A stretch of DNA of 64,000 bases from Candidatus Omnitrophota bacterium (lineage in GTDB: Bacteria > Omnitrophota > Gorgyraeia > JABMRG01). The notes under the pieces are model-generated. The model saw only the letters and a list, made by a program, of their open reading frames with translations. It ran no database searches and was not told the DNA's origin. Of this stretch, positions 3,436 through 64,000 are shown in pieces; the first letter of the stretch is position 1; every line of letters starts with the position of its first letter. The position numbers and the translations under genes were made by a program. The DNA is taken from the NCBI GenBank assembly GCA_030593065.1, contig JAUVHV010000002.1:104098-168097 (forward strand), read 5' to 3'.

Positions 3436-5043
3436 CTAAAACAACCCTTTAATCTTACCATGGTTATCAGCAGTAATGTTACATGCTGCCGGTTTTTTAG
3501 GCAGCCCCGGTAAAAGCAGTATGTCACCGCAGACAGGAACAATAAAACCTGCGCCTGAAAATATCCTTATCTGGTGTATATTCAATTTCCATTCCTCAGG
3601 CCTGCCTTTCAAAAGGTGGTTATCAGATAAAGAAAACTGTGTCTTAGCAATATTGACAGCAAGCCTGTTCAAGCCAAGATCCTCTATAACCTTGAGGTCT
3701 TTCTTTGCCTGCAGACTAAAATTTACCCCTTTCCCACCGTATATTCTGGTAGATATAAGCTCTATCTTGCCCTTTATACTTAATTCTTCATTATAGAGAA
3801 GCTTAAACCCGCATTCGCCTTTTTTAAGCTGGCGCATGCATCCTTCTGCCAACTCTATCGCACCGCAGCCTCCTCTAGCAACAGCATCCGATATATAGCT
3901 CTCCACCCCAAGCTCCTGGCAACAGGCCTTTATCTGTTTAAGAGCCTTAGGTGGATCATTGGGAAATTTGTTTATCGCAACTATGGGTTCTATACCGAAA
4001 CACCTTATTATATTGATATGCTTCTTAAGATTAGGCAACCCATGCAGCCTCATAGCTCTACGAGAGACAACTATAACCGCCAGTTCCGGCCTTAATCTGC
4101 CTTGCCGGCATACAACATTAAAAAATTTCTCCGCACCGAGATCAGCGCCAAAACCACTTTCCGTTATTACATAATCCGCTAGTTTCAATCCCATAAGTAT
4201 TGACATAAGGCTATTTGCGCCATGGGCAATATTTGCGAAAGGCCCGCAATGAACAAAGGCGGGATTACCTTCTATCGTCTGGACAAGATTGGGCATAATA
4301 GCGTTAACCAGAAGCGCGCTCATTGAGCCAACAGCATTTAAGGTTTTAGGCGTAACAGGTTTCTTCTTCTTTGTAAAAGCAACTATCATACGTGAAAGCC
4401 TGTTTTGCAGATCCGCTATATTTCTGCTTAAGGCGAGGATTGCCATTGTTTCGGATGCGGCTATAATATCAAAGCCGCTCTCATAAGAAACTTTTTTGTC
4501 GATATTAAAACGTATCTTCCGAAGTGTCCTGTCACTTATATCTATGGTTCGCCGCAATAGTATATTGTTTATATCAATATTGAGCTTGTTATTAAAATAG
4601 ATACTGCTATCGAGCATGGCGCAAAGTAGGTTATTCGCTCCGGATACCGCATAACTATCACCTGTAAAATGGAGATTTATATCCTCCATTGGTATCACCT
4701 GGGAATATCCTCCGCCACAGGCGCCGCCCTTGATACCAAACATAGGCCCCAGTGAAGGTTCACGTAAACAGAGAAAAGCTTTTCTCTTCAATCTTCCGAA
4801 TGCCTGTGCCAGGCCTATAGCGGTCGAGGTCTTTCCTTCTCCATGTTTTGTAGGTGTTATAGAAGTGACAAGTATAAGTTTTCCATCGGGCTTGCTTTTT
4901 AATCTTGAGAGAAGTGAAGGGGATACTTTAGCTATATGGTTACCGTAAGGTATAAGTTCTTCATTCTTTATACCTGCGGATTTTGCTACCTCAGTTATCT
5001 GCTTCGGCTTTACACGCTGAGCTATCTCTATATCAGAAAGCAT
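3436..5043 (-). CDS. fhs: Formate--tetrahydrofolate ligase
   Basis: 535 aa; TPTKHGEGKTSTAIGL P-loop region; full-length FTHFS architecture. Confidence 0.92.
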   Translation of the reverse strand: MLSDIEIAQRVKPKQITEVAKSAGIKNEELIPYGNHIAKVSPSLLSRLKSKPDGKLILVTSITPTKHGEGKTSTAIGLAQAFGRLKRKAFLCLREPSLGPMFGIKGGACGGGYSQVIPMEDINLHFTGDSYAVSGANNLLCAMLDSSIYFNNKLNIDINNILLRRTIDISDRTLRKIRFNIDKKVSYESGFDIIAASETMAILALSRNIADLQNRLSRMIVAFTKKKKPVTPKTLNAVGSMSALLVNAIMPNLVQTIEGNPAFVHCGPFANIAHGANSLMSILMGLKLADYVITESGFGADLGAEKFFNVVCRQGRLRPELAVIVVSRRAMRLHGLPNLKKHINIIRCFGIEPIVAINKFPNDPPKALKQIKACCQELGVESYISDAVARGGCGAIELAEGCMRQLKKGECGFKLLYNEELSIKGKIELISTRIYGGKGVNFSLQAKKDLKVIEDLGLNRLAVNIAKTQFSLSDNHLLKGRPEEWKLNIHQIRIFSGAGFIVPVCGDILLLPGLPKKPAACNITADNHGKIKGLF

Positions 5044-7047: not shown

Positions 7048-7109
7048 TGTATCATCTCCTTATGCTCCATGCCTGCCTGCCTGTAGGCAGGCATATAACG
7101 CATGATGGT

Positions 7110-10593: not shown

Positions 10594-11850
10594 TTAAACC
10601 TTATTCATACTCATTAAAAATTCCGCGTTTGTCTTTGTCCTGGCCAGCTTTTCAATAATAAGCTGCATCGCCTCATCTGATGGTAATTCATTCAATACTT
10701 TACGGAGTATCCATACGCGTTTGAGTTCATCGGGATCAAGCAAAAGCTCTTCTTTTCTTGTATTTGAACGTTTTATATCTATTGCGGGGTAGATTCTTTT
10801 CTGAAAAAGGCTTCTATCCAACTGCAATTCCATATTGCCCGTTCCTTTAAATTCCTCAAAGATAACCTCGTCCATCCTGCTGCCAGTATCGATTAAAGCG
10901 GTCGCTATGATTGTAAGGGATCCACCCTCCTCAATATTACGTGCCGCGCCAAAAAACCGTTTAGGCTTATGGAGCGCGTTTGAATCAACACCGCCTGAAA
11001 GTATCTTTCCGCTATGAGGTACCACCGAGTTGTAAGCACGAGCAAGCCGCGTTATGCTATCAAGCAGAATAAGAACATCCTTCTTATGCTCTACGAGCCT
11101 TTTCGCCTTTGCAAGAACCATATCAGCCACTTGTACATGCCTCTCTGCCGGCTCATCAAAAGTTGAGCTTACTACTTCTCCCTTAACAGAGCGCTGCATA
11201 TCCGTAACCTCCTCAGGCCTCTCATCAATCAATAGTACTATAAGTATGGTATTAGGCGCGTTCTTAATAACCGCATTAGCGATCTTTTGCAAAATAACTG
11301 TCTTTCCGCTATAAGGCGGCGCTACTATCATACCACGCTGCCCTTTTCCTATAGGTGTTAAAAGATCCATGACCCTGGTCGATAGATCCTTTGGGTCATT
11401 TTCAAGTAAGAACCTGTCGGTTGGATAAAGAGGAGTAAGATTATCAAAGACTATTTTATCCTTTGCTTTTTCAGGATCAGTGAAATTAACACTCTCCACC
11501 TTAAGAAGCGCAAAATAGCGTTCTCCCTCTTTAGGGGAGCGTATCTGTCCATGTATGGTATCGCCGGTCTTTAAATCAAACTTTCTTATCTGGCTTGGAG
11601 ATACATATATATCATCCGGGCACGGAAGGTAATTATAGTTAGGTGATCTCAGAAAACCAAAGCCATCCGGCAGCACCTCAAGCACGCCGCCACCACTTAT
11701 GACCCCTTCGCCCCGCGTCTGCGACTGAAGTATCTTGAATATAAGATCCTGTTTCTTAAGGCCGCTTACTTCATTAACTTTAAGATCGTTTGCGATCTTA
11801 TTTAATTCCAACACCTTCATCTTTTTTAGTTCCGCGGCATCTATAGCCAT
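10594..11850 (-). CDS. rho: Transcription termination factor Rho
   Basis: 418 aa; N-terminal RNA-binding domain plus RecA-like core ([15 protein letters not shown] Walker A). Confidence 0.93.
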
Positions 11851-30374: not shown

Positions 30375-30490
30375 GCATACCTCCTTTTAATATTACATTG
30401 TATATAAGTTTAAGTATTATATCATATAGCTACCACCTGCTCAAGCAAAATCGAGATTAATCCGCATTAACTCATAATTAAAGGTTACTA

Positions 30491-30900
30491 GCAGCCAGCT
30501 TTTGAGCAATTTCGCAGAAGCACAAAATTTTTCCCTGCGAGAAAATTTTGCTCCGTTTTTTTGCTCTCTCCCACTGCTATTTTACTTTGTAAAACAGCAG
30601 TGGTCCATGCCCGTTCGCAAAAAAGAGGTTCTGCTCCATTACTCAAAAAGCTGGCTTTCAGAACGGTTCTTAATTAAAACCACACTTGCAAAACTATGCC
30701 AAGGTTTGCTAACTAAGGGAGAGTTTTGTTGCAACTGGAGCGGGACTTTGGTGGTGCGAGCGGGCAAGGTTCGCCCTGATTAAGTCATATGCGAGAGCGA
30801 GCGCCAACTCGGAGTGAAATTCCCACGCTGGGGGAATTTCACGTTCCTGCGAAAGTTGCTACGAAACTCTCAGCTTAGATGAAGGTAGCGGATAAGGAAT
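30491..30900. repeat. Mosaic GC-rich intergenic repeat, copy A (modules shared with copies at 56296-56715 and 62512-62722)
   Basis: About 150 nt of 30700-30900 is the reverse complement of 56320-56530 at roughly 90% identity. Palindromes at 30520-30552 and 30814-30842 share arms and loop with the hairpin at 56401-56430. Confidence 0.8.
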
Positions 30901-30916
30901 CATAGATAACGTTTGA

Positions 30917-32836
30917 TTATGAGCTGACTGGAAGTTTCCTTCCGGCTTTATGTTCGTTTATGGTGTTTCGCAAGAGCCTGCAATAGAGGTCAAATCCTAC
31001 AGCGGCAATATATCCATGCTGTTGGGTCCCTAATATATTGCCGGCACCCCTTATCTGAAGGTCTTCCATAGCTATCTTAAAACCTGAACCCAGTTCTGTA
31101 AAACGTCCTACAGCCTTGAGCCTTCTCTTTGCGTCTCCTGCAAGCGGGTAATTCTTTGGCACCAGGCATATCGCGTAAGCTTTTATATTAAACCTGCCTA
31201 CCCTGCCTCTAAGCTGATAAAGATCTGCTAAACCAAACCTATCCGCGTGATTTATAATAATAGTATTTGCATTCGGTATATCTATACCTGATTCGATAAT
31301 AGTTGTAGAGACCAAGACATCTATTTCACCTTTTATAAACTGGAGCATTATCTTTTCAAGCTCTTTAGCCGGAATCTTACCGTGGGCAACAGAGATACGT
31401 ACACTCTCTCCCATAAGCGCCTTTAGTCCTAACACGATCTTCTCTATCCCCTTAATCCTATTATTCACAAAAAAGACCTGGCCTCGCCTTTTAAGCTCAC
31501 GCTCAATAGCTTCTTTAATCAGCTTATCGTTATATGAACTTATAATAGTCTTGATAGGAAGCCTGTCAAGGGGTGGTGTGTTGATTGCGGACATATCTCT
31601 TGCACCGGTAAGCGACATGTATAGCGTACGCGGTATAGGTGTAGCTGTCATTGTAAGGACATCTATAAGAAGCCTGATCTTTTTCAATTTCTCTTTTGCC
31701 TTTACGCCAAAACGCTGTTCCTCATCTATAATTACGAGCCCGAGATCCTTAAATACTATATCATCCGACAAAAGCCTGTGTGTTCCTATTACAATATCGA
31801 CAGAACCCTCTTTCAACCCCTTCAAAACCTCTTTCTGTTCAGATTTTGTCTTAAAACGTGAAAGCATCTGTATATTTACAGGAAACTCCTTCATTCTTTC
31901 GCAAAATGTATTATAATGCTGTTCCGCCAATATAGTAGTAGGAACTAATATACCAACCTGCTTGTTATCCATTACAGCCTTGAATGCGGACCTTAAAGCA
32001 ACTTCCGTCTTACCATAACCTACGTCACCACATAAGAGCCTATCCATAGGCTTTGGCTTTTCCATATCAGAGATTACGTCAGAAACGGCCTTTGCCTGAT
32101 CGATCGTATCTCTATAAGGAAAACTTTCTTCCAGTTTATATTGCCAATCAGTATTTTTGGAGAAAGCAAAACCCTTGAGTTTCATTCGATCTGCCTGCAT
32201 CTGAAGCAGTTCCATTGCATAAGAGGCTGCTATCTTCTTGGTCTTCTGTTTTAATCTTTTCCAGGAACCTGTTCCCAGCTTGCTCAGTCTTGGAACACAC
32301 TTATAAAAACTTAAATATTTTTGTATAAGATTTATCTCCCCGACAGGCAAATACAACTTATCTCTATCCGCGTACTCGATTAGAATATAATCTTTCTCAT
32401 GGCCACTCTTTTCCTTTATTTTCTTTATGCCTTTGTATATACCTATACCATAATCAATATGTACGACTAAATCGCTAATCATTATATCAACAAAGTTATC
32501 TATAGGCACCTCTTCTCCCATACCGTGAAATATAGCGGGCTTGGCAGAAGAGTGTAATGTTTTTCTTGGAAGTATTATTACCATCTGGTGGACAGAAGTA
32601 ATCTCAGAAGTGACCAGGCTAAAAGATCGTATAGAATGAACCTTATCCTGAAAAAGCTCTAATCGCACAGGAGACTCAAAGCCGCTGGGAAAGATATCGA
32701 TAATCCCTCCCCTGTGCGCAAAGTCTCCTTCCTGCGCTACAAAATCTGTTATCTTATAACCCAGCAGGATTAAATCTTTAAGAAGCGGTTCTTTCTCCTG
32801 GTTTTGATTGGTATAAAGCTTGGCCGATTTAAACAT
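30917..32836 (-). CDS. mfd: Transcription-repair coupling factor (Mfd) homolog; short form lacking the N-terminal UvrB-homology region (D1a/D2 side) and the C-terminal D7
   Basis: 639 aa. Contains RGGIIDIFP...RLELF (UvrB-like motif), a CarD/TRCF RNAP-interaction domain (VVHIDYGIGIYKG...KLYLPVGEINL), SF2 helicase motifs (GDVGYGKTEVALR; DEEQRFGV; TATPIPRTL; QLRGRVGR) and a TRG region. Only 45 bp separate it from argS. Confidence 0.75.
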   Translation of the reverse strand: MFKSAKLYTNQNQEKEPLLKDLILLGYKITDFVAQEGDFAHRGGIIDIFPSGFESPVRLELFQDKVHSIRSFSLVTSEITSVHQMVIILPRKTLHSSAKPAIFHGMGEEVPIDNFVDIMISDLVVHIDYGIGIYKGIKKIKEKSGHEKDYILIEYADRDKLYLPVGEINLIQKYLSFYKCVPRLSKLGTGSWKRLKQKTKKIAASYAMELLQMQADRMKLKGFAFSKNTDWQYKLEESFPYRDTIDQAKAVSDVISDMEKPKPMDRLLCGDVGYGKTEVALRSAFKAVMDNKQVGILVPTTILAEQHYNTFCERMKEFPVNIQMLSRFKTKSEQKEVLKGLKEGSVDIVIGTHRLLSDDIVFKDLGLVIIDEEQRFGVKAKEKLKKIRLLIDVLTMTATPIPRTLYMSLTGARDMSAINTPPLDRLPIKTIISSYNDKLIKEAIERELKRRGQVFFVNNRIKGIEKIVLGLKALMGESVRISVAHGKIPAKELEKIMLQFIKGEIDVLVSTTIIESGIDIPNANTIIINHADRFGLADLYQLRGRVGRFNIKAYAICLVPKNYPLAGDAKRRLKAVGRFTELGSGFKIAMEDLQIRGAGNILGTQQHGYIAAVGFDLYCRLLRNTINEHKAGRKLPVSS

Positions 32837-51452: not shown

Positions 51453-53693
51453 ATGAAAAAATTGCCCTATATGGCTGCTTTCCTGGTGGGCGTAAATGCC
51501 CTATTAAGCCAGGTAATGATTATAAGAGAGCTTCTGGTAAATTTTTCCGGCAATGAACTCTCTATGGGAATTATTATTGCCACATGGCTTGTTGGCGCGG
51601 CAATAGGCAGCCTTGTCTTAGGGCGCTATTTTATTGAAAAGATAAAAACACCCACATATACCTTTTCCATACTACTTTTAGTAATATCAGCGCTAATTCC
51701 AATCAGCATCTTCCTGTCCAAAACCGTAAGATACATGTTCCAAATACCCATATATGAGACTCTGGGGCCATTACATATGCTTTCGATATGCGCGATACTG
51801 CTCTTGCCTCTATCCGGGCTGCTTAGTTTCTGCTTTATATTATCCTGCAAAATGCTAAAAATCGCTGTCTCAAAAAATAATACCCCTGGTACCACTTATA
51901 TGCTGGAAGCGCTTGGAGCAACCGCGGCCGGCGCGGTCTTCACATTCCTGCTTATAATATACTTTAATCATTTCCAGATAGCCTTAGGCCTAATATTTAT
52001 AAATATTCTATTTGCCTCATACATTGCTTGCAGAAAAAAGTTTTTCCTCTATCTCCTGCTGTCAATTTTTATTGCTGTTTTTTCGGCAAACAGCATAAAA
52101 TGGCTGCAAAAAATATCAGAAACACTGCAATGGCACCCCTATGAAGTGGTATATTACGCAAGTTCTCCATATGGCAATATAAGCGTCACAAAATCAGCCG
52201 ATACATTCAATGTTTACGAAAACGGCGCCTTGCTATTTACCACTCAGGATGAGGTCTTTAATGAAAACTTTTCGCATCTAGTAATGTTACAGCACTCTGC
52301 TCCAAAGAATGTGCTTCTTTTAGGCAACGGCATAGGTGGAATATTAAGGCAGATACTTAAACATAACCCCCAATCTTTAACATATCTCCAACTCGATTCG
52401 GAAATTTTAAGAGCAAGTAAAAAGTTCCTGCCGCAGAAAGAGAAAAATATTCTTTCAGACCCGCGCCTTAAAATAATACATGAAGATGCGGGTTTTTTTA
52501 TAAAAAGGACAAAAGAGAGGTTTGACCTGATAATAATAAATATGCCGGATCCCGTTACGCTTAGCATTAACCGTTTTTACACAAAGGAGTTCTATGAAAT
52601 AGCCCGTTCCCATCTTAAAAAAGGCGGTATACTGGCTACGCGCATCTCATCCAAAGAGTCTATAATAAGCAATGAGCTGGCCAGGTATAACGCATCTGCT
52701 TACAATACCCTTAAGAACGTATTTCACTATGTAGAGTGCATACCCGGTGAAAACCTTATCTTCATAGCTTCCGATGACTTAAATATTACAACAGATAGGC
52801 CTGAAATCTTAGTAGAAAGATTCAGCAAAAGAGCTATCAAGACAGATTTCCTTACAGAATACCATATAAGAGACAGATACTATCCGGACATGCTAAACTA
52901 TCTCGCAGGCCAGCTTGAAAAAGGGCGTAGAGATGCCGGTATCAATACAGATTTTCATCCTATCTGCTTCTACTACGGCTTTATCCTCTGGAACATTAAA
53001 TTTCAGCCGCATATAGCGGGGCTGTTTAATTCTATTGTACAGATAAACATCTTAGGCATAATCTGTATAATGATTCTGTTTTTTTTATGGGGGCTTTTTG
53101 CAATCAGATTTAAAAAAGATTCTGCGGTCTATTTTATACGTTCCGCGATAGCTGTAAGCGGAGCAGCTGGTATTACTCTCGAAATTATAATATTACTCTC
53201 TTTTCAAATAAGTTATGGGTACGTATATAGCAAGGTAGGATTTTTAATAGCGCTCTTTATGCTGGGGCTGGCATCGGGAAGCTATATCATAAATCAGAGA
53301 TTATATAAATTCAAAAATCTGCACAATCTGCTCTGCGGGATAATACTGATATTCTGCTTGTATATAACCTTAGCGCCTCTGATTATAAGGTTTGCGGCAT
53401 CGATACCCCTGCAAGCTTCTGAGTATATATTCTATCTTATGATACTTATAACCGGTATGTTTACGGGATGCCAGTTTCCTGTTGCAGTGGCATTACTGCA
53501 AAAAAGATATTCGCCAAGCTATTCTGCGTCGATTATATGGGGATCTGATCTTCTGGGCGCGGCAACAGGTGTACTTATATCAAGCCTTATAATCATTCCT
53601 GTTCTCGGAATGTTTACTGCCTGCTTCATAGCCGCGACATTCTGCGCAATAAGCCTTATCCTGCTTCTTTTTCGCCAAAGACTTCAGCGCTAA
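51453..53693 (+). CDS. Fused polytopic membrane / spermidine synthase-like (class I SAM-dependent aminopropyltransferase fold) protein
   Basis: 746 aa; about 7 N-terminal TM segments, a central spermidine-synthase-like core (LLLGNGIGG...DLIIINMPDP...), and further C-terminal TM segments. Confidence 0.7.
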   Translation: MKKLPYMAAFLVGVNALLSQVMIIRELLVNFSGNELSMGIIIATWLVGAAIGSLVLGRYFIEKIKTPTYTFSILLLVISALIPISIFLSKTVRYMFQIPIYETLGPLHMLSICAILLLPLSGLLSFCFILSCKMLKIAVSKNNTPGTTYMLEALGATAAGAVFTFLLIIYFNHFQIALGLIFINILFASYIACRKKFFLYLLLSIFIAVFSANSIKWLQKISETLQWHPYEVVYYASSPYGNISVTKSADTFNVYENGALLFTTQDEVFNENFSHLVMLQHSAPKNVLLLGNGIGGILRQILKHNPQSLTYLQLDSEILRASKKFLPQKEKNILSDPRLKIIHEDAGFFIKRTKERFDLIIINMPDPVTLSINRFYTKEFYEIARSHLKKGGILATRISSKESIISNELARYNASAYNTLKNVFHYVECIPGENLIFIASDDLNITTDRPEILVERFSKRAIKTDFLTEYHIRDRYYPDMLNYLAGQLEKGRRDAGINTDFHPICFYYGFILWNIKFQPHIAGLFNSIVQINILGIICIMILFFLWGLFAIRFKKDSAVYFIRSAIAVSGAAGITLEIIILLSFQISYGYVYSKVGFLIALFMLGLASGSYIINQRLYKFKNLHNLLCGIILIFCLYITLAPLIIRFAASIPLQASEYIFYLMILITGMFTGCQFPVAVALLQKRYSPSYSASIIWGSDLLGAATGVLISSLIIIPVLGMFTACFIAATFCAISLILLLFRQRLQR

Positions 53694-56205
53694 ATATATA
53701 TATATCACACCCCTTGTTTTTCCAGCTGTCTCGAGATAATCCTGCCTTATGCATACACAGAGAATCCATAAACTCTTCTCTGCTCCAGCCTGTCTCAACA
53801 GCTACCTGCGGAAGATACACACCACTTTTGAACCCGCTTCTTATCAGCACACCGTGTTTACCCATAATAATCTCATCAGGGCTATCTATCTTCTTAAGCG
53901 GTGAAAGAACCGATACCTCTATATCTATATCCTCAAGTTCTTTTGGGCCTACAGGCGAAAATCTCGGATCCTGTGTACCTGCCTGTATAGCCATGTCACT
54001 AACTGTCTGATAGAGCGGCCCCTTACCTATAATATTACCTATACATCCTCGCAAATGCCCATTCTTATGCAACGTGACAAATACCCCCATCTCTTTGTTT
54101 AAAATCGGATTATCCTCATTGATAACCAGCTTCTCGCCATTATCTACATAGGCCTTGAGCGTCTCTCTTGCAATCTGAAGAAGGCGTTTTTTCTCTTCCG
54201 CATTAAGTAGTTCTTCCATATTTTTCTCCACTTTATGTTTTTCTATTACCTGATGATCATCGGCCAATAATTTATAAATTACAGCAGAGGCATATCCCAC
54301 AACAGCGCTGCCATCACCTGTTACATCAGCTGATGTCGTGTATCTGAGTATACTGATCTTATCAGCTCCCAACTTACGCGCTGCCATCATAGCACCGATT
54401 ATAGCTGTGCTCCCGCATGGCTTCTCTTTACCCGGCATTTTGGAAAGCTTTAAAAACAGCTCTTCAGGATTAAATTTCTTGATCTCATCCAGGACAGCGG
54501 AATCTATAATACGTGCTCTCTTATCAGAATTGTAATGAGACATATCACTGCTGGCAATAATAACTATATCTTTTCTCTCTCCTATCACGGCGTAGAGCGC
54601 GTCACGTAAAAGCGTACATGTATCATATGAGCTGTTGCCTGTCAGGATAAGAACTATCCTTGCCTTAGGCAGTGATTCCTGCACAAATGGTATCTGGGTC
54701 TCTGTTGAATTTTCATTTAAAAATGGCTTGTTATAATAATTTACGTTTTTATTAAAAGAGAAGAGTCTCTGGGTTACATCCCTATCTATGGCCACCTTTC
54801 CAAGCGGAGTAAGATAAAAATCCTTATCAAGTACGGCTATCCCTTCGAAAGAATGGCGGTGGCTTGGAGCAACAATAATTGCTGTATTAAATCCTTTATC
54901 TTTAATAGCCTTGAAGCCGTAACCCGCGGCTTCTCCAGAGTACCTAAAACCTGCATGCGGTGATATAATAGCAATTATATCACCAGCTATCAGTTCAGGT
55001 TCTGCATTACCGATAAAATCGCCTACTACTTCCTTAAGTACCGCGGGATCTTTGGGATAAAAAGAGCCTGTAAGCGACGGCTCCTGTATATCTTCCGCAT
55101 CTTTCCATATACCTGCAATCTCTTTTTGGCAATATTTGCATTTTCCGCTTTCTATATTGTTTTCCACAACATTATACCCTAATCGTTTTATCAAAAGTTT
55201 TTTGCAACCAGGGCAATATGTAGATTCACCCTTGCTACCTGGTATATTACCGATATAAACATAATTAAGCCCCGCGGATACAGCTATATTATACGCGGCT
55301 TTCAGGGCAGATACCGGTGTCGGAGAAATATTCTTAAGCTTATACATTGGCCAGAAACGTGAGATATGCAAAGGTGTATCAGGGCCAAGATTTTCCTTTA
55401 TCCATAGGCATGTCTCTTTTATATAATCAGGATTATCATTTATAGTAGGTATTAGAAGATAAGTAATCTCAAGCCACACGCCTTCTTCCTTCAATATCCG
55501 TAAAGTGCGCAGTACATCTTCTCTGTTCCCAAGGCAGAATTCATTATAGAATCTATCTGAACCCTTGAGATCTACATTGGCGGCATCCATATATTCGCAC
55601 AACTGCCTTAAAGGTTCTTCACTTATAAAACCGCATGAATGCATTACATTCATTATGCCTGCCTGATGCGCCAATTTTGCTGTATCTAACATATATTCAT
55701 AAAAGATTGTGGGTTCAGTATAGGTATATGCGATACTTGGGCAGTTATTCGTATTAGCAAGCATCACTACTCTTTCAGGCGGTACATCTTCATAAGGAAC
55801 ATCTTCAGGCCAGGCTTGAGATATCTGCCAATTCTGGCAGAACTTACATTCAAGGTTACACCCTGCGGTTGCTATGGAGAATGATTTCGTACCCGGAAGA
55901 ACATGGAATAATGGCTTCTTTTCAATAGGGTCAACATGAAGAGCGCATGGCTTTGCATATACAAGGCTATATAGCACTCCATCCCTGTTCTCTCTCACCC
56001 GACAGAAACCTCTCTTCTTATTCGGAATAATACATTTGCGAGGGCATAACAGGCAACCCACTCTCTTATCATCCAGTCTCTGGTAATAAAGCGCTTCTTT
56101 CAGTTCCGGTCTTTGGGCTAAAACATTCGAAGCAAGATATGATAATGATTGGCATAACAGGAGTATCGCGACAAGAATTGACACAGATATAAATATCTTT
56201 TTCAT
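53656..56205 (-). CDS. AmmeMemoRadiSam system triple fusion: radical SAM enzyme (AmrS) + Memo-like protein (AmrB) + AMMECR1-domain protein (AmrA), with N-terminal hydrophobic anchor
   Basis: 849 aa uninterrupted ORF. AmrS part: CPRKC...GFC N-terminal Cys cluster plus CNLECKFCQNW (Cx3Cx2C). Middle CPGCKK...CKYC zinc-ribbon-like linker. Memo part: IISPHAGFRYSGEAAGYGF. AMMECR1 part: HLRGCIGNI...DPRF. N-terminus MKKIFISVSILVAILLLC is hydrophobic. Confidence 0.82.
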   Translation of the reverse strand: MKKIFISVSILVAILLLCQSLSYLASNVLAQRPELKEALYYQRLDDKRVGCLLCPRKCIIPNKKRGFCRVRENRDGVLYSLVYAKPCALHVDPIEKKPLFHVLPGTKSFSIATAGCNLECKFCQNWQISQAWPEDVPYEDVPPERVVMLANTNNCPSIAYTYTEPTIFYEYMLDTAKLAHQAGIMNVMHSCGFISEEPLRQLCEYMDAANVDLKGSDRFYNEFCLGNREDVLRTLRILKEEGVWLEITYLLIPTINDNPDYIKETCLWIKENLGPDTPLHISRFWPMYKLKNISPTPVSALKAAYNIAVSAGLNYVYIGNIPGSKGESTYCPGCKKLLIKRLGYNVVENNIESGKCKYCQKEIAGIWKDAEDIQEPSLTGSFYPKDPAVLKEVVGDFIGNAEPELIAGDIIAIISPHAGFRYSGEAAGYGFKAIKDKGFNTAIIVAPSHRHSFEGIAVLDKDFYLTPLGKVAIDRDVTQRLFSFNKNVNYYNKPFLNENSTETQIPFVQESLPKARIVLILTGNSSYDTCTLLRDALYAVIGERKDIVIIASSDMSHYNSDKRARIIDSAVLDEIKKFNPEELFLKLSKMPGKEKPCGSTAIIGAMMAARKLGADKISILRYTTSADVTGDGSAVVGYASAVIYKLLADDHQVIEKHKVEKNMEELLNAEEKKRLLQIARETLKAYVDNGEKLVINEDNPILNKEMGVFVTLHKNGHLRGCIGNIIGKGPLYQTVSDMAIQAGTQDPRFSPVGPKELEDIDIEVSVLSPLKKIDSPDEIIMGKHGVLIRSGFKSGVYLPQVAVETGWSREEFMDSLCMHKAGLSRDSWKNKGCDIYIFSAEVFGEKEAG

Positions 56206-56295
56206 GGTTGTATTTATTATACCACCTTAGACAGGATTTCCAAAAAGAAAAAATCACCACATCACTCTGCGCATCAACTCACAAAAAATATCATC

Positions 56296-56715
56296 TATGA
56301 TCTCTTCTGCCTTCTCTAAGCTGAGAGTTTCGCTGCAACTTCCTCAGGAGCGACCGAGGACGAAATGTCCAAGGGAGTGCCGAGAGCTCCGCGAACGACC
56401 GTGAAATTTTTCCCTGCGAGAAAATTTCACTCCGAGTTGGCGCTCGCTCTCGCGTAGAACTCAATCAGGGCGAACCATGCCCGCTCGCACCACCAAGGTC
56501 CCGCTCCAGTTACTACAAAACTCTCTCTTAGTTAGCAAATCTAAATATGGCTTTCGGGCATTTCGTCATCGGTAGTTTCGCGGAGGATAGCTGGTAAGAA
56601 TATCTCTTATGCCTTTGCCTTTTAGCAGCGCTTTGGATTTTTTTGCTACGAACGTAAATAGACGGCAAAAATACCTGCGCTGCGAAGGCAGAAGGCAGAA
56701 GAGATTGCAGGTGAT
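56296..56715. repeat. Mosaic GC-rich intergenic repeat, copy B
   Basis: 56320-56530 is the reverse complement of copy A (30700-30900) with an extra roughly 57-nt module. 56560-56710 is the reverse complement of 62512-62640 in copy C at roughly 85% identity. Perfect 10-bp hairpin at 56401-56430. Confidence 0.8.
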
Positions 56716-56740
56716 ATTTTTTGGTCAATACGTAATAATC

Positions 56741-57412
56741 TCATGCTAAATACGCGTGTATAGACATAAAACGCTGGATAAAACGTTTCTCTGTGCCGGC
56801 GCCTAATGATGTATTGTAATAACGTTTCCATAATACCGCCAAACCGGATGGATTTGACGGTACAATATTTATACCCTTGCGCTCAAATATCTCTTTATAA
56901 ACAAGCAGTGAAATAAGAGCTGCAAAATCATAATCATCCGCGCAAAGATTTCTAAGTTTCTCCCTGTCCATCACGGCAAGGCTACTCCATGCAAGCCTGC
57001 CTTTGGTAACTTTGGCAAAGAGCGGTATTAACTTCTCGCGTTTTGCTATTTTTTCGCTACCCTTGATAGAATATGTTACATATCTATGCATAACTCCATA
57101 TACAGTTTCACCGATAACCTGGTATGGCCCGCTTCCGTTTCTGGATACCCCTGAATATCTATCTAAAAAATTGCTCTCTACAGCGGCTGTTCCAAGAAGC
57201 AGCATAACCCAGGAAGTTTTTTGAGTTTCACCCATATCAGGAAAGACAAGGTCAATGATTCTCCTGACCCTCTTATTGTGGTCCTGATAATTTCTGAATT
57301 GTTCTCGGTTAAAACCGGTATTGATAGGAATGGCACAATCTCCTACTGAAAAAGAGAAAACAGCGTTTAGAGCAATGGTAATAATAATCCATATAACCGT
57401 CGGCTTTAACAT
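56741..57412 (-). CDS. Exported protein with a lytic transglycosylase (SLT)-like motif pattern
   Basis: 223 aa; signal/TM N-terminus; GTAAVESNF ... GPYQVIGETV ... YYNTSLGAG resembles the ES / G(L/P)MQ / YN.G motifs of SLT domains. Weak. Confidence 0.4.
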   Translation of the reverse strand: MLKPTVIWIIITIALNAVFSFSVGDCAIPINTGFNREQFRNYQDHNKRVRRIIDLVFPDMGETQKTSWVMLLLGTAAVESNFLDRYSGVSRNGSGPYQVIGETVYGVMHRYVTYSIKGSEKIAKREKLIPLFAKVTKGRLAWSSLAVMDREKLRNLCADDYDFAALISLLVYKEIFERKGINIVPSNPSGLAVLWKRYYNTSLGAGTEKRFIQRFMSIHAYLA

Positions 57413-57599
57413 CGGCTATAATCCTTTATTTTTAAATACTTTTTAAAACTAAATAGTAAGTATGAATAAAAAAAGAGCCTTTACTTAGACTTATCCCTTT
57501 AAATTAAATATGCCATACAATGCGGGTAAAATCAAGGGGCCAGAGCATAAAATAATAATATTTTATGCTCTGGCCCTGAATAAATATGTCAAGTGTTTC

Positions 57600-59981: not shown

Positions 59982-62465
59982 TTACTCAAGCCCTGTTTTA
60001 TGCTTATCTATCCAACGCAACCTTTCACGGGCATGTTTAGCTTCCTGTACATCCTCCAGAGCTATCTCCTCGTATATCTTTCGCGCGTCAAGCCATCTTT
60101 CCTGTGCCTCAAATATCTGTGCCGTTCGTAAACGCGCGCGCATGGCCCAATATCTGCTATTAGGGTAGAGATAGCCGACTTTCAGGTATTCTGAAATCGC
60201 GCTGTCAAAACGAGATTCATCTTCCATGCATTCAGCAATTCTAAACTGCAATTCCGCGTTAAAATCATTATCATCGGCTGTAAGCGCCTTTCTATAATAG
60301 CTGACAGACTTGCCATAAAAACCTTTTGACTGATATATAAGTCCTATCTTTTTATTCATTATCTTTTGAAATTGCCTGTCCTTATAATTCGCGATAAGAC
60401 GCTCAAGCGTCCTTACAGCCTCCTTATATTTTCCTGATTCTGTCAGGATATCACCAAGTGCTATCGCAGCACTATATGCTGAATCACTATTCGGATAACG
60501 AATTATAACACTTTCGAATTGATCAAGAGCAAGCTTAAGCTTACCTTCACGATAAAATGTCCACCCCAACAGATAATTCGCATCATCCACCAGCCCGCTC
60601 TTTGGAAAACCTGCTATAACCCTGTTTAAACTGATCTTTGTCCTTGGGTAAAGGCCTTTGCTGTAATAGTTCTGCGCAAACCAAAAAATAATATCCGCAG
60701 TTATATCACTATCCGGATAACGCATAAGATAATCATCAAATATCTTTGTAGCGACCTTCTCTTTTCCCATCCGGTAATAACACCAACCCAATTCATACCT
60801 CGAGAGCCTTTCTAACTCCGTATCGGAAGTCTTGCTTATTATATTTTTAAAAATTTTAACTGCTCCCGCATAATCCCTGGTATTATAATGGCAGCTTCCT
60901 ATCTGATATAGAGCCTTATCCTTAAATTCACTGTTATAAAATTCTTCCACTATTTGATCATACTTCTGTATAGCAAACTTATAGTTAGCCTGTTTGTAAT
61001 ATATATTACCTAATTGGAATATTACCTTATCCATAAGCTTACTCTTGGGAAAATTACTCATAAAACTCTTAAATGTAATTATCGCGTTAGCAAGTTCATT
61101 TATGTTAACAAAGGTTTCTCCGAGCCTATACTGAGCGTAATCAGCATAATAATTATCAGGATATTCGTTCAGCACATTATCATAATACTGCTGGGCCTGT
61201 TCATAATCACCTATGTCAAAATAGATGTCACCGATGCGGCACATTGAGCTTGCCTTAAAATTATTGTTATCTGAAAGCTCTTTTGCCTGCTTGAACTGAA
61301 GTATAGCCTCCTTTGGCTCATCAAGGCGCAGAAGAGTCCATGCAAGGTTATAGTGTGTCTCTGGCAAAAGTTCACTTTTGGGAAAATAGTTTAAAAGCTC
61401 TTTATATGCCGCTACCGCGTCTTGGTAGTTACCAATATTATAAAGGGATTCCGCTTTCTGGAAATATGCTTCCTCCACGTACTTGCTGGTAGAGTATATA
61501 TCTAATAAACGGTCATAGGCGATTACAGCTTCCTTATTTTTACCTTCCATGCTATAAGAACGGCCTAAACCAAAAAGCGCGTTATCTTCATAGCCATTGA
61601 GTGAATCATCCTCAATAATACCTTGAAATTCCTTAATAGCATCGCCATATTCAGCCATCTTAAAATAAGACCAGCTTATACCGAGCCGGGCATGCGGTAT
61701 CCATTTTTCCGCGCCTGAAAACTCCAGTGAATCTTTGTATAAAGCAATAGCACCTTCATAATCCTTAAGCTGATAAAGTATCTCCGCATTTAAATATAGC
61801 GCATCCTTTGCCTCATTTGCCAATGAAAATCTCTTCAGATAATATTCCACCCTCTCTTTTGCCTTGTTAAGTTCAGAAAGGTCATAATAGGATTCTGCTG
61901 CTTTGTAGATAGCTGATGGTAAAATTTTTGAATTTGAATATTTATCTATTATCTTTTCAAAATCCTGCAGCGCCTGTCGCATATCATTCTTTTTATAATA
62001 AGCCCAACCGCGTGAGTAATAAGCGTATGGGATATATGCAGAATGCGGATACTTATCGATAAGGCGCTGATAGAATGATATCGCGCTATCATACTCAGCA
62101 ACCTTGAAATTAACTTCACCGCACCAGTATAACGCGTCATCCTTGAATTTAGAATTATCAAGACCAAGCACGCTTTCAAACCGGTTCAGTGCTTTGGAAT
62201 ATTCGCCTTTGTAAAAATAGGATTTCCCGATAAGCATACGAGCTTCGGCAGTACGGGGGCCTGTTGGATAATGCGCAAGAAACTGGTTTACCTGCTCTAT
62301 TGTCAGATCATATAAGCCATCGGCAAAAGTCTTCCGCGCGAGTAAAAGCTGGGTATCTTTTTGTTCATTATCTGCGTAAAGATTAATTGGCATGCAAACA
62401 GAACAAAAAAGCATGATTAGTATAATAGGATTATATATGGTTTTCATATCTGATAAGTATATCAT
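59982..62465 (-). CDS. Large secreted tetratricopeptide-repeat protein (YbgF/CpoB-like TPR arrays)
   Basis: 827 aa; signal peptide; about 15 TPR units (recurrent W/Y..G.....G.Y..A...F pattern); immediately upstream of exbB-exbD-tonB. Confidence 0.7.
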   Translation of the reverse strand: MIYLSDMKTIYNPIILIMLFCSVCMPINLYADNEQKDTQLLLARKTFADGLYDLTIEQVNQFLAHYPTGPRTAEARMLIGKSYFYKGEYSKALNRFESVLGLDNSKFKDDALYWCGEVNFKVAEYDSAISFYQRLIDKYPHSAYIPYAYYSRGWAYYKKNDMRQALQDFEKIIDKYSNSKILPSAIYKAAESYYDLSELNKAKERVEYYLKRFSLANEAKDALYLNAEILYQLKDYEGAIALYKDSLEFSGAEKWIPHARLGISWSYFKMAEYGDAIKEFQGIIEDDSLNGYEDNALFGLGRSYSMEGKNKEAVIAYDRLLDIYSTSKYVEEAYFQKAESLYNIGNYQDAVAAYKELLNYFPKSELLPETHYNLAWTLLRLDEPKEAILQFKQAKELSDNNNFKASSMCRIGDIYFDIGDYEQAQQYYDNVLNEYPDNYYADYAQYRLGETFVNINELANAIITFKSFMSNFPKSKLMDKVIFQLGNIYYKQANYKFAIQKYDQIVEEFYNSEFKDKALYQIGSCHYNTRDYAGAVKIFKNIISKTSDTELERLSRYELGWCYYRMGKEKVATKIFDDYLMRYPDSDITADIIFWFAQNYYSKGLYPRTKISLNRVIAGFPKSGLVDDANYLLGWTFYREGKLKLALDQFESVIIRYPNSDSAYSAAIALGDILTESGKYKEAVRTLERLIANYKDRQFQKIMNKKIGLIYQSKGFYGKSVSYYRKALTADDNDFNAELQFRIAECMEDESRFDSAISEYLKVGYLYPNSRYWAMRARLRTAQIFEAQERWLDARKIYEEIALEDVQEAKHARERLRWIDKHKTGLE

Positions 62466-62511
62466 TTAGTAAATATAAATTCAATAACAAAATACTCAGA
62501 AAAGCCAATAT

Positions 62512-62722
62512 AATCTCTTATGCTTTCTGCCTTCGCAGCGCAGGTATTTTTGCCGTTTATTTACACTCAGCGCAAAAAAATCCAATGCGCTGCTAAAAGG
62601 CAAAGGCATAAGAGGTGTTCTTATCTGATAGCTACTGAGGACAAAATATCCGAGCGACCAAAGGAAGTCCCTTTAGGCAGAAGTACCGAGAGCTTCGCGA
62701 ACGGTGCAACAAAACTCTTATG
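62512..62722. repeat. Mosaic GC-rich intergenic repeat, copy C
   Basis: 62512-62640 is the reverse complement of 56560-56710. 62640-62705 resembles 56345-56400 (CCGAGAGCT(C/T)CGCGAACG core). The tail GCAACAAAACTCT matches the A/B module end. Confidence 0.8.
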
Positions 62723-62724
62723 AG

Positions 62725-64000
62725 TCACTTAGCCATTACTTTTCTGAGATAGGCTCCTGTATAGGAATATCTGTTTTTGGAGATTTCGGAAGGAGAACCA
62801 CAGGCAACTATCTTACCGCCTTTTTCACCGCCTTCCGGGCCTAAGTCTACAATATAATCCGCGGACTTTATCACATCAAGATTATGTTCTATAACCAATA
62901 CCGTATTACCCTGGGTAACTAACCTATTTAAAACCGATAAGAGCTTACTTACATCCGCAAAATGTAACCCGGTAGTAGGCTCATCCAGGATATATAGAGT
63001 TCTGCCTGTTGCCGATTTTGAAAGTTCTGTCGCCAGTTTTATTCTTTGAGCCTCACCGCCGGAAAGAGTTGTAGCGGGCTGGCCAAGTTCAATGTAACCT
63101 AAACCAACATCAGAAAGAGTCTTCAATTTTTTACGTATAGGGGGGATATTAGCGAACAGCTCTAAGGCATCATCAACAGCCATCTCTAACACATCTGATA
63201 TAGACTTACCCTTATATCTTACCTCAAGCGTCTGATGATTAAAACGTTTTCCCTTGCAAGCCTGGCACTGGATATAAACATCCGGAAGAAAATGCATCTC
63301 TATTTTCTTTACTCCATCACCCTCGCAAATTTCACACCTACCACCTTTAACATTAAAACTAAACCGGCCTGCTTTATATCCCCTTATCTTTGATTCAGGA
63401 AGTTTGCTGAATAGATCTCTTATATGGCTAAAAGCACCTGTATAGGTCATGGAGTTGGAACGCGGCGTACGTCCTATAGGCGCCTGATCCACAACTATTA
63501 CCTTATCTATATGCTCACTTCCTAAAATCGTTTTATGCTTGCCTGGGACTTGAGTTGAATTATAGAATTTTCTCGCAAGTGCCCTGTAGAGTATCTCATC
63601 TACTAATGTAGATTTTCCCGAACCGGAAACACCTGTTACACAACTGAATATACCCAAAGGCAAAGAGACATCAATCCCTTTTAGGTTGTGCTCACTCGCT
63701 TCTTTAATAATAAGTTTCTTTCTATTTTTATAATCTCTGGGATTACCAGATGAGGCTACTATCAAGCTGCCGTTTAAATACTTTGCGGTCAGGGAAGCCT
63801 TATTTTTAAGAAGGCCTTTTATTCGGCCGCTATATATAAGCTCCCCGCCGAATTTTCCGGCGCCAGGGCCTAAATCCACAACAAAATCCGCGCTTCTGAT
63901 CATAGCCTCATCATGCTCTACAACAAGAATAGTATTACCAAGATCGCGCAAAGCCTTAAGCGTAGAAAGAAGCTTGAAATTATCCTTCTGGTGAAGGCCT
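62725..64000 (-). CDS. uvrA: Excinuclease ABC subunit A; C-terminal portion only, the gene continues beyond the window end
   Basis: Second ABC ATPase module and zinc finger (CEICEGDG; [12 protein letters not shown]; [10 protein letters not shown]). The N-terminal half lies off-window; the ORF-track Met at 63951 is internal. Confidence 0.9.

Follow-up and report, generated by a model that had tools for sequence, protein, structure and literature searches.

Introduction

BIMEs carry REP sequences of the Y and Z types. One end of a REP palindrome carries a conserved tetranucleotide tag, GTAG or CGTC (PMC3733652), and doublets of REP sequences in inverted orientation constitute the mobile or replicative unit, their hairpins forming in single-stranded DNA or in mRNA (PMC3116915). 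The repeats of pneumococci are structured, patchily distributed, and ORF-bearing; they are co-transcribed and have been judged parasitic (PMC3049150). The element analyzed here, copy B, lies in an intergenic spacer of 535 nt (56206-56740) within a 64-kb window (the whole stretch of DNA that was analyzed, to which all positions refer unless another locus is named); two related copies, A and C, are found in the same window. Copy B does not code for protein; it is repeat DNA pieced together from two kinds of foldable repeats and lies between two housekeeping genes.

Copy B and its relatives in the window

The spacer extends from the start of an 849-aa AmmeMemoRadiSam ORF at 56205, which is encoded on the minus strand and contains AmrS, AmrB, and AmrA domains (hereafter Amr ORF), to the stop of a 223-aa gene at 56741, for which searches of Pfam and NCBIfam returned zero matches. 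The original prediction had placed copy B between the stop of the preceding gene and the start of the Amr fusion; both positions agree, and what it had reported on the coordinates and content of the copy was borne out with only small corrections. One of these concerns the limits, given as 56296-56715. They designate the right element, but the ends of copy B are a 34-nt inverted repeat (I4; 56282-56315 and 56690-56723; 88% complementary), so that its true extent is slightly wider, from about 56274/56282 to 56723. When the spacer was compared with the window by BLAST, 56392-56542 matched the reverse strand of copy A (30851-30702; 87% over 151 nt) and 56588-56706 the reverse strand of copy C (62630-62512; 88% over 119 nt). 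All modules of A and C are indeed present in copy B, namely, the head, the branched unit, the tail, the "b" insertion, and the a′ palindrome. That it would be closest to a full-length element, as had been suggested, is wrong, because two independent families lie side by side, each of which also occurs alone elsewhere; copy B is thus a mosaic and not itself a master copy.

The head, which is also the left inverted end (56282-56315, plus strand; CAAAAAATATCATCTATGATCTCTTCTGCCTTCT), is similar both to one arm of a′ and to the A2 head (BLAST match to 30927-30853, 76%). It is followed by a branched unit of type I (56323-56525), by the tail of this unit together with a spacer (56526-56595), and by the a′ palindrome (56596-56706), the outer part of whose arm forms, with flanking sequence, the right inverted end (56690-56723, minus strand; I4). 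The tail, CTTAGTTAGCAAA, is common to copy A2 (BLAST match to 30729-30702, 93%). Inspection of alignments by eye suggested that the segment 56526-56595 also holds remnants resembling the 3′ end of a unit and a b-like piece, the latter at 56545-56590. On the gene strand, the whole of copy B is predicted to fold with −171.7 kcal/mol (z −6.4). A Logan short-read contig from the same strain (L001; SRR18936876) begins within copy C and stops within the right end of copy B, which is expected if the repeat ends are multi-copy in the genome.

Copy A consists of two units arranged tail-to-tail. The left member, A1 (30481-30668, plus strand), is of the A1-like subtype and scored 140.2 bits with the covariance model described below (R1); the other, A2 (30706-30927, minus strand; 150.7 bits), is of type I, with the unit proper at 30706-30884 and a head extension to ~30927. 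A2 is the closest relative of the unit of copy B, and the stop of the mfd ORF falls inside it. Copy C (62497-62724, plus strand) comprises an a′ palindrome (62507-62632) and, after it, a gutted unit, of which a 5′ remnant, the b insertion, and the 3′ strand of helix P1 (GCAACAAAACTCT) are retained. The final two codons of uvrA, together with the stop, come from the tail of copy C, and the copy is located between this stop and a conserved promoter-like block of a TPR/ExbBD/TonB operon. With filters switched off, R1 recognized exactly three units in the window: A1, A2, and that of copy B.

The branched unit forms a covarying five-helix fold

A degenerate pattern derived from the core of A and B retrieved homologues from two MAGs of "uncultured Planctomycetia" and from eight metagenome contigs of ~40% GC; a strict 34-mer pattern had yielded 0 matches in the genome contigs, and only the looser one succeeded. 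From genome fragments of 8-20 kb, 20 distinct full-length units were aligned end to end. The unit spans ~160-175 nt and contains five helices. P1, a long closing helix, is separated by a TTC/TCC internal loop from P2, beyond which a three-way junction bears hairpin P3 and helix P4 with its invariant TC/TC loop; P4 is capped by a variable hairpin, P5, adjoined by the conserved stretch ACCnTGCCCGCTCGCA. P1 to P4 were predicted by RNAalifold from the 20 units, and P5 was spotted by eye within P4 (e.g., TTCCGCC/GGCGGAA or CCCCTGC/GCAGGGG). In the RNAalifold prediction, compensatory double changes were found in 32 of the 36 pairs. The proportion of paired cells was 91.9%, compared with 70.2% in column shuffles, which ignore phylogeny and of which none in 500 reached as high a value; in a control that does not ignore phylogeny, sliding the pairing partners by one to three columns lowered it to 39-47%. 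The covariation score was 0.617, compared with 0.224 in shuffles, and every unit folded with a z-score of about −6.

The covariance model built from the branched units, R1, assigned 128-172 bits to the 20 full-length units other than that of copy B. A distant homologue from a host of 65% GC (L009) scored 79.9 bits; it retained all helices, rebuilt from different bases, and the unpaired motifs GCTCGCTC and ACCGTGCCCGCTCGCA were unchanged. Conservation of unpaired nucleotides from hosts of 40% GC to one of 65% goes beyond what is usual for simple palindromic repeats; this speaks against a mere repeat and could mean an RNA function. Three subtypes were distinguished: type I, type II (TGCCATTCGCA), and A1-like. 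Identity between nearest neighbors was mostly 65-78%, yet 92% of the stem cells pair. Compensatory change in quasi-palindromic DNA can come from template switching, without selection. The persistence of intact stems in such old copies fits selection in situ or correction by template switching as well as it fits evolution of a master copy.

In copy B, the C-rich strand of the unit is the plus strand (R1 E-value 5.7e-24; 87% identical to A2). P1 pairs 56323-56340 with 56508-56525, with mismatches at 4 of 18 positions; P2 pairs 56344-56349 with 56499-56504; P3 occupies 56401-56430; P4 pairs 56436-56447 with 56483-56494; and P5 lies at about 56450-56473. At 96.8 bits, this is the worst-preserved full-length copy, owing to the four mismatches in P1 and to an insertion of ~49 nt, "b" (56351-56399, plus strand), which splits the unit between P2 and P3. 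The b insertion has a small hairpin of its own (GGAC-GAAAT-GTCC). It is opposed by a gap in A2, A1, and all other units and is common only to copy C (62650-62703), with a BLAST match of 91% between 56376-56397 and 62682-62703.

The hairpin highlighted by the original prediction, GTGAAATTTT / TCCCTGCGAG / AAAATTTCAC at 56401-56430, is a perfect one of 10 bp, as claimed. A lone hairpin of this kind is within chance expectation: first-order Markov simulations produced ~1.0 ± 1.3 per window, and the window holds about nine distinct ones. This hairpin is nevertheless real, because it is helix P3, whose stem compensatory changes have preserved in each of the 20 aligned homologues; all nine predicted pairs change on both sides across these homologues, and 92% of the cells are paired. 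As to the strand that folds, the G-rich strand was more stable by 10.6 kcal/mol in all 20 units, but the shuffle z-scores of the two strands were equal (−6.2 and −6.6), so the difference is compositional, and the counts of G·U (17) versus A·C (26) combinations do not discriminate between the strands. A pseudoknot of the P3 loop (GCGA/AGCG with UCGC/CGCU), considered by eye, was rejected: the partner is already part of P4, the covariation is inconsistent, and some loops are unrelated (TAAAGCTAA). A promoter in the head was likewise dismissed: TATGAT/TATAAT recurs there at one position in copies B, A2, and C, but in other genomes homology begins at P1 and the flanks are unrelated.

At gathering thresholds, the only Rfam 15 match in the window was a tRNA, and 11 related loci gave none; at E-values up to 10, copy B and the best-preserved pair returned only microRNA and snoRNA noise. 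Searches of plasmid and phage collections by blastn gave zero matches, and of viral contigs scanned with the pattern, two matched, neither of which was confirmed by R1. Searches of the literature on MITEs and palindromic repeats of planctomycetes and anammox bacteria turned up no account of this family. As it matches no Rfam family, the branched unit constitutes a new family of a familiar, REP/BOX/MITE-like class and is probably neither a gene nor a switch.

The a′ palindrome and the ORFs that it generates

The second family, a′, is an imperfect palindrome of ~125 nt with an outer stem of 27-36 bp and an inner stem. In copy B, it forms a long imperfect hairpin (56596-56706; 126.6 bits with an HMM) with arms at 56596-56623 and 56678-56706 and the inner stem GGATTTTTTTGC/GCAAAAATACC, for which an RNA fold of −48.3 kcal/mol (z −3.8) was predicted. 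The consensus of seven copies is a hairpin of 34 pairs, eight of them compensated. At five loci (copy B, L004, L012, L022, and L029), a′ and a type I unit, measured from its tail, are 15-70 nt apart; solitary a′ copies were found at L034:12162-12281, in the same genome, and at L027:158-334, and branched units occur without a′ at many loci. Both families are real, and both folds have been maintained through compensatory change.

The palindrome also gives rise to two ORFs, one of 66 aa with a TTG start in copy B (56528-56728, minus strand) and one of 67 aa in copy C (62520-62723, plus strand). Both exist as originally described, and both contain the peptide that had been pointed out, a shared stretch of ~35 residues, which is the one feature in favor of a genuine small protein. 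The original interpretation, that DNA conservation mimics protein conservation here, is correct and is supported by the comparison of codon positions that had been proposed. The 14 differences between B and C in the 119-nt match are distributed 5/6/3 over codon positions 1/2/3, with 10 changed codons non-synonymous versus 2 synonymous, so that there is no synonymous bias, and no Shine-Dalgarno sequence precedes either start. Furthermore, the frame is interrupted by stops or frameshifts in four homologous copies (L004, L012, L022, and L034), the one at L034:12162-12281, a third copy in the same genome, carrying indels of 1 and 2 nt. The shared "peptide" corresponds to the purine-rich arm (GCTGCTAAAAGGCAAAGGCATAAGAG) of the conserved long a′ hairpin. 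That these ORFs encode a real protein is, hence, extremely improbable.

Turnover of the repeats among relatives

Homologues of the 223-aa protein gave access to the syntenic loci of relatives, where the spacer between this gene and amrS differs widely in content. In the window (535 nt), it contains a′ followed by an inverted type I unit. At L029 (220 nt), type I and a′ are present in the opposite orientation, and an A1-like and a type II unit occupy the spacer at L002 (448 nt) and L019. It is empty at L027 (83 nt), filled with an unrelated perfect palindrome of 33 bp with a T-run at L030 (140 nt), and with unrelated sequence at L032 (280 nt). R1 found one unit in 117 kb of syntenic DNA of the relatives, compared with three loci in the 64-kb window. 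Another pair of loci, L007 and L018, share their left boundary and have flanks of ~95% identity, but an inverted type I unit by itself in one corresponds to a pair of type I and type II in the other. Among close relatives, copies have come and gone, changed orientation, or been replaced by others. Single copies also decay: the unit of copy B is split, that of copy C is gutted, and one unit at L002 is missing 64 nt internally. When the orthologous loci L019 and L002 are compared, identity is 89.6% in the coding flank, 90.6% in the spacer, and 87-93% in the units; this similar divergence, together with the loss of 64 nt, indicates that single copies are no better protected than their surroundings.

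Relative to the neighboring genes, units point either way, and the spacers that hold them are tandem as well as divergent, with divergent promoter regions occupied at L006, L007, L012, L018, and L009. Members of the two families adjoin unrelated genes (mfd/prsA, uvrA/TPR, apbE/H+-PPase, and hrcA). Where two units are adjacent, their arrangement is constant: all seven independent pairs (copy A of the window, L004-L007, L018, and L019/L002) are inverted, tail-to-tail, and heterotypic, combining type I with type II or an A1-like unit with either.

A promoter candidate for the Amr ORF outside copy B

A σ70-like promoter candidate for the Amr ORF was found at 56216-56243 on the minus strand (TTGGAA, 16 nt, TG-TATAAT), between copy B and the ATG and outside the former; it matches 10 of 12 consensus positions and has a TG-extended −10 element. 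It would imply a nearly leaderless mRNA, whose 5′ end is predicted at about 56209, outside copy B. The stretch is conserved at L027, where the spacer is empty, and at L002 and L030, which carry other elements. These findings support neither the idea that the Amr transcript starts inside the repeat nor the original suggestion that copy B is placed to influence expression of the fusion gene, as the promoter candidate is kept in relatives without the element; in the L029 spacer, moreover, this pair of repeats is turned the other way round. Terminator-like sites were absent from both strands between 56100 and 56850 (0 found).

Discussion

Copy B is probably a BIME- or BOX-like mosaic of non-autonomous, structured, interspersed repeats of the REP/BIME, BOX, or MITE kind. 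Both families would have collected in the "dead zone" that separates a stop codon from the promoter following it. They may be mobile or selfish DNA that does not move autonomously but depends for its spread on an enzyme acting in trans, the gene for which lies elsewhere, and by analogy with REP/REPIN sequences and RAYT (PMC3116915), this enzyme might recognize a folded single strand of DNA. Alternatively, copies could be spread or replaced by recombination between one another. Locally, the effect may be passive: read-through from the 223-aa gene would place a very stable structure in its 3′-UTR. Occasionally, the repeats would remodel gene ends, as copy C appears to have done for uvrA.

On another reading, copy B could be a cis-regulatory element of the Amr gene, acting as promoter, 5′ leader, or upstream operator; its end is situated ~30-40 nt upstream of the −35 element of the promoter candidate, and such elements fill the same spacer in several relatives. 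However, copy B includes neither the promoter-like site nor the near-leaderless start, both of which are conserved at L027, L002, and L030, the content and orientation of the spacer vary among relatives, and the same families adjoin unrelated genes. For a riboswitch or leader, a fixed orientation and position and a consistent set of genes would be expected; none of these was found, and the elements are absent from some orthologous spacers. We therefore consider cis-regulation very unlikely; a regulatory role is not supported, and the repeats occupy tolerated dead space. Somewhat less remote, although still unlikely, is that the host keeps the repeats as terminators, insulators, or mRNA-stabilizing 3′ structures, a REP-like role. 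Copies A, B, and C each directly follow a stop codon, ahead of the next promoter, their structures are very stable (see the values for the whole of copy B), and the palindrome with the T-run in the L030 spacer is terminator-like. Yet the hairpins of the repeats lack a T-run and copy B contains 0 terminator-like sites, units are also present in divergent promoter regions, and a five-helix branched fold with conserved loops exceeds what a terminator needs. Moreover, the empty spacer at L027 shows that a structure is dispensable between the 223-aa gene and amrS.

More weight, if still on the doubtful side, may be given to the idea that the branched unit works as a structured RNA (a multi-copy small RNA, a self-cleaving ribozyme, or the RNA partner of a mobile-element enzyme) and that the repeats are copies of its gene. 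The covariation is strong (32 of 36 pairs; 0.617 versus 0.224 in shuffles), every unit folds with a z-score near −6, the family is conserved into a host of 65% GC, and the G-rich strand is the more stable one in 20 of 20 units. On that strand, the internal loops read GGA/GAA and GA/GA, with invariant unpaired nucleotides; tandem G·A is a classic RNA motif. Absent from Rfam, the unit could represent an undescribed class. Against this stand the lack of a conserved promoter or terminator (homology begins at P1, and no terminator-like site was found in copy B), the occurrence of units in either orientation relative to transcription, and their absence from close relatives. In addition, orthologous copies are no more conserved than the spacer and tolerate a deletion of 64 nt, G·U (17) is not favored over A·C (26), and the difference in stability between the strands is compositional (z −6.2 and −6.6). 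A more specific version of the idea, which we put forward tentatively, is that the ~170-nt unit represents a class not yet described, either of structured RNA or of folded single-stranded DNA, whose biochemical role is a specific one; it may cleave itself as a ribozyme or serve as recognition or guide RNA for a recombinase that spreads the element. The three-way junction, the invariant GA/GA and GGA/GAA loops of the G-rich strand, and the conserved motif UGCGAGCGGGCAnGGU would fit such a class. If it were true, the two members of each obligate heterotypic pair, set tail-to-tail, would serve as the functional ends of the element.

Whichever way they spread, a mosaic of interspersed repeats such as copy B has practical consequences. 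The repeats break short-read assemblies, as illustrated by the Logan contig of the same strain that ends in B and C, they rewrite gene ends (uvrA via copy C, mfd via copy A2), and they yield conserved-looking ORFs that annotation pipelines will call; a model of the R1 type would allow annotators to mask them. Most bacterial interspersed repeats are simple palindromes, whereas the family described here combines a riboswitch-sized fold of five helices with conserved unpaired motifs and heterotypic tail-to-tail pairing. It thereby offers a handle on an old question, namely, by what REP-like elements are recognized and spread, and in which form, DNA or RNA, their folds are active. Should the fold prove catalytic or recombinase-guiding, it would be a new RNA class.

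Comparison with known repeat and RNA classes

With the REP, BIME, and REPIN sequences of E. coli and Pseudomonas, which are mobilized by RAYT, the repeats share an extragenic location, high density, structure, and the lack of coding capacity. As in BIMEs, inverted neighbors of different subtypes are joined by short modules into mosaics, and singlets decay; the inverted doublet typical of REP was found in seven of seven independent pairs of branched units. The unit itself differs, being 160-175 nt long with five helices and a three-way junction, compared with a single palindrome of 20-40 nt. It also lacks a conserved GTAG/CGTC tag, and its copies are far more diverged. GTAG is present inside P1 in ~9 of the 20 units and elsewhere covaries to GCAG, TGAG, AAGG, or GGGG. 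Neither Y1_Tnp nor any other transposase domain, as would be expected of a RAYT, was detected in 10 small ORFs of the window. An ORF of 385 aa beside the pair at L019, which by eye has DDE-like motifs and may belong to an insertion sequence, was rejected as the mobilizer: it has no Pfam match, and the inverted ends that belong to it (ATGTTACCGAAA) show no relationship to the units.

The BOX, RUP, and SPRITE elements of Streptococcus pneumoniae are likewise modular, with extensive predicted structure and patchy occurrence among close relatives; large elements contain ORFs on both strands, insertions modify gene ends, and the elements are co-transcribed with their neighbors (PMC3049150). In BOX, however, boxA, boxB, and boxC follow one another in tandem, whereas the units here are branched and inverted, and the host belongs to a different phylum. 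Sequence similarity to BOX, RUP, or SPRITE was neither detected nor expected.

MITEs and elements of the ERIC/RU type (Correia, ERIC/RU-1, RU-2, Nezha, and bcr1) resemble the repeats in being intergenic, non-coding, and 100-450 nt long with long hairpins; accidental ORFs and fusion to gene ends are known for them, as seen here (PMC2759123; reviewed in PMC3184786). Inverted termini measure 34 nt in copy B (88%), 27-36 nt in a′ (arms of ~36 nt at L034), and 12-18 nt in the P1 strands of the unit. Presence and absence alternate as in MITEs, L027 being empty and the window, L002, L019, and L029 filled, with a further difference between L007 and L018. As a target-site duplication, at most a shifted TCA could be recognized at the edges of copy B, and no pair of empty and filled sites has identical flanks; a parent insertion sequence with matching ends was not found in the related loci examined. 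Unlike a MITE, the branched unit does more than fold back on itself: each internal helix covaries on its own, and conserved unpaired motifs are present.

These latter traits are shared with the structured RNAs of Rfam. Hammerhead- and twister-type ribozymes were rejected, as were retrons, integron attC sites, the ends of IS200/IS605, the RNAs of TnpB, IscB, and IS110, and Y RNA: none has an Rfam match here, core motifs did not correspond, and no reverse transcriptase, integrase, or recombinase is adjacent. The size of the unit is nevertheless that of a riboswitch or ribozyme, and the multi-helix architecture, covariation, and conserved junction nucleotides are those of such RNAs. What sets it apart from them is its genomic behavior, which, with copies in either orientation, patchily present and prone to decay, fits a repeat and not an RNA gene.

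Gene ends and spacers at the repeats

Downstream of uvrA lies copy C of the repeat (window 62497-62724, + strand). The last two codons of uvrA and its stop (GCT AAG TGA, 62725-62733) share homology with the tail of the repeat, which reads GCTAACTAA in B, the mosaic beside the Amr ORF, and in copy A2; here, they are supplied by the tail of copy C. The UvrA proteins of relatives are two residues shorter at the C-terminus (..KKVM* and ..KKVIS*). Insertion of copy C has rewritten the end of uvrA. The insertion point is just upstream of a block, tattattgaatt...atgatatactta (62465-62500), that precedes the TPR/ExbB/ExbD/TonB operon, is conserved in all relatives (L002, L027, L030, and L032), and looks like the promoter of that operon. 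A second gene end adjoins a repeat at the mfd-like ORF (30917-32836, - strand), which has 639 aa only and covers the TIGR00580 model (907 positions) from 299 to 821. This ORF stops at the edge of the A2 head; therefore, the Mfd C-terminal domain may have been lost through insertion of A2.

Two of the spacers that hold repeats in the window carry different palindromic elements in relatives, neither related to the window repeats: a perfect hairpin of 33 bp with a T-run after it (L030, about 10720-10800), and an element of ∼170 nt with 34-nt inverted ends (AAAGGGGACGGTCCTAAAGGGGACACCCTTAC; L027, about 4720-4900). These two spacers are hot spots of foldback DNA. In L019, a putative insertion sequence of ∼1.2 kb (634-1865), with inverted ends ATGTTACCGAAA, directly adjoins the unit pair and takes the place of the spacer's amrS side. 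The element contains an ORF of 385 aa that had no match in Pfam; DDE-like motifs were recognized in it by eye.

Unit variants and strand composition

Strand composition is constant in all 20 aligned units, one strand being C-rich and the other G-rich, and the G-rich strand folds better by 10.6 kcal/mol in every one of them (20/20). This bias is compositional because shuffled controls shift equally. Units L022:3424-3600 and L019:397-578, which belong to different subtypes, have in common an alternative loop of hairpin P3 (TAAAGCTAA) in place of CAGCGT/CTGCGA, a hint that copies exchange sequence or that two loop states are permitted. The sole GC-rich homologue of the unit (L009:1381-1644) is followed by a CIRCE operator (TTAGCACTC-N9-GAGTGCTAA) and the hrcA-grpE operon.

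The Amr ORF and other hairpins

AmrS, AmrB, and AmrA are encoded by one ORF of 849 aa (53656-56205, - strand); in the relatives L027, L029, and L030, they are encoded by two overlapping genes (373 and 519 aa). The single ORF is either a true triple fusion or the product of a frameshift or assembly error. Besides further perfect hairpins in the window (at 7069, 9882, 22728, 25010, 28426, and 54959), one with a 17-bp stem (GGGCCAGAGCATAAAAT...ATTTTATGCTCTGGCCC; 57539-57578) is located just 3′ of the stop codon of cutA. On the gene strand, a T-rich run comes next; this hairpin probably acts as an ordinary intrinsic terminator.
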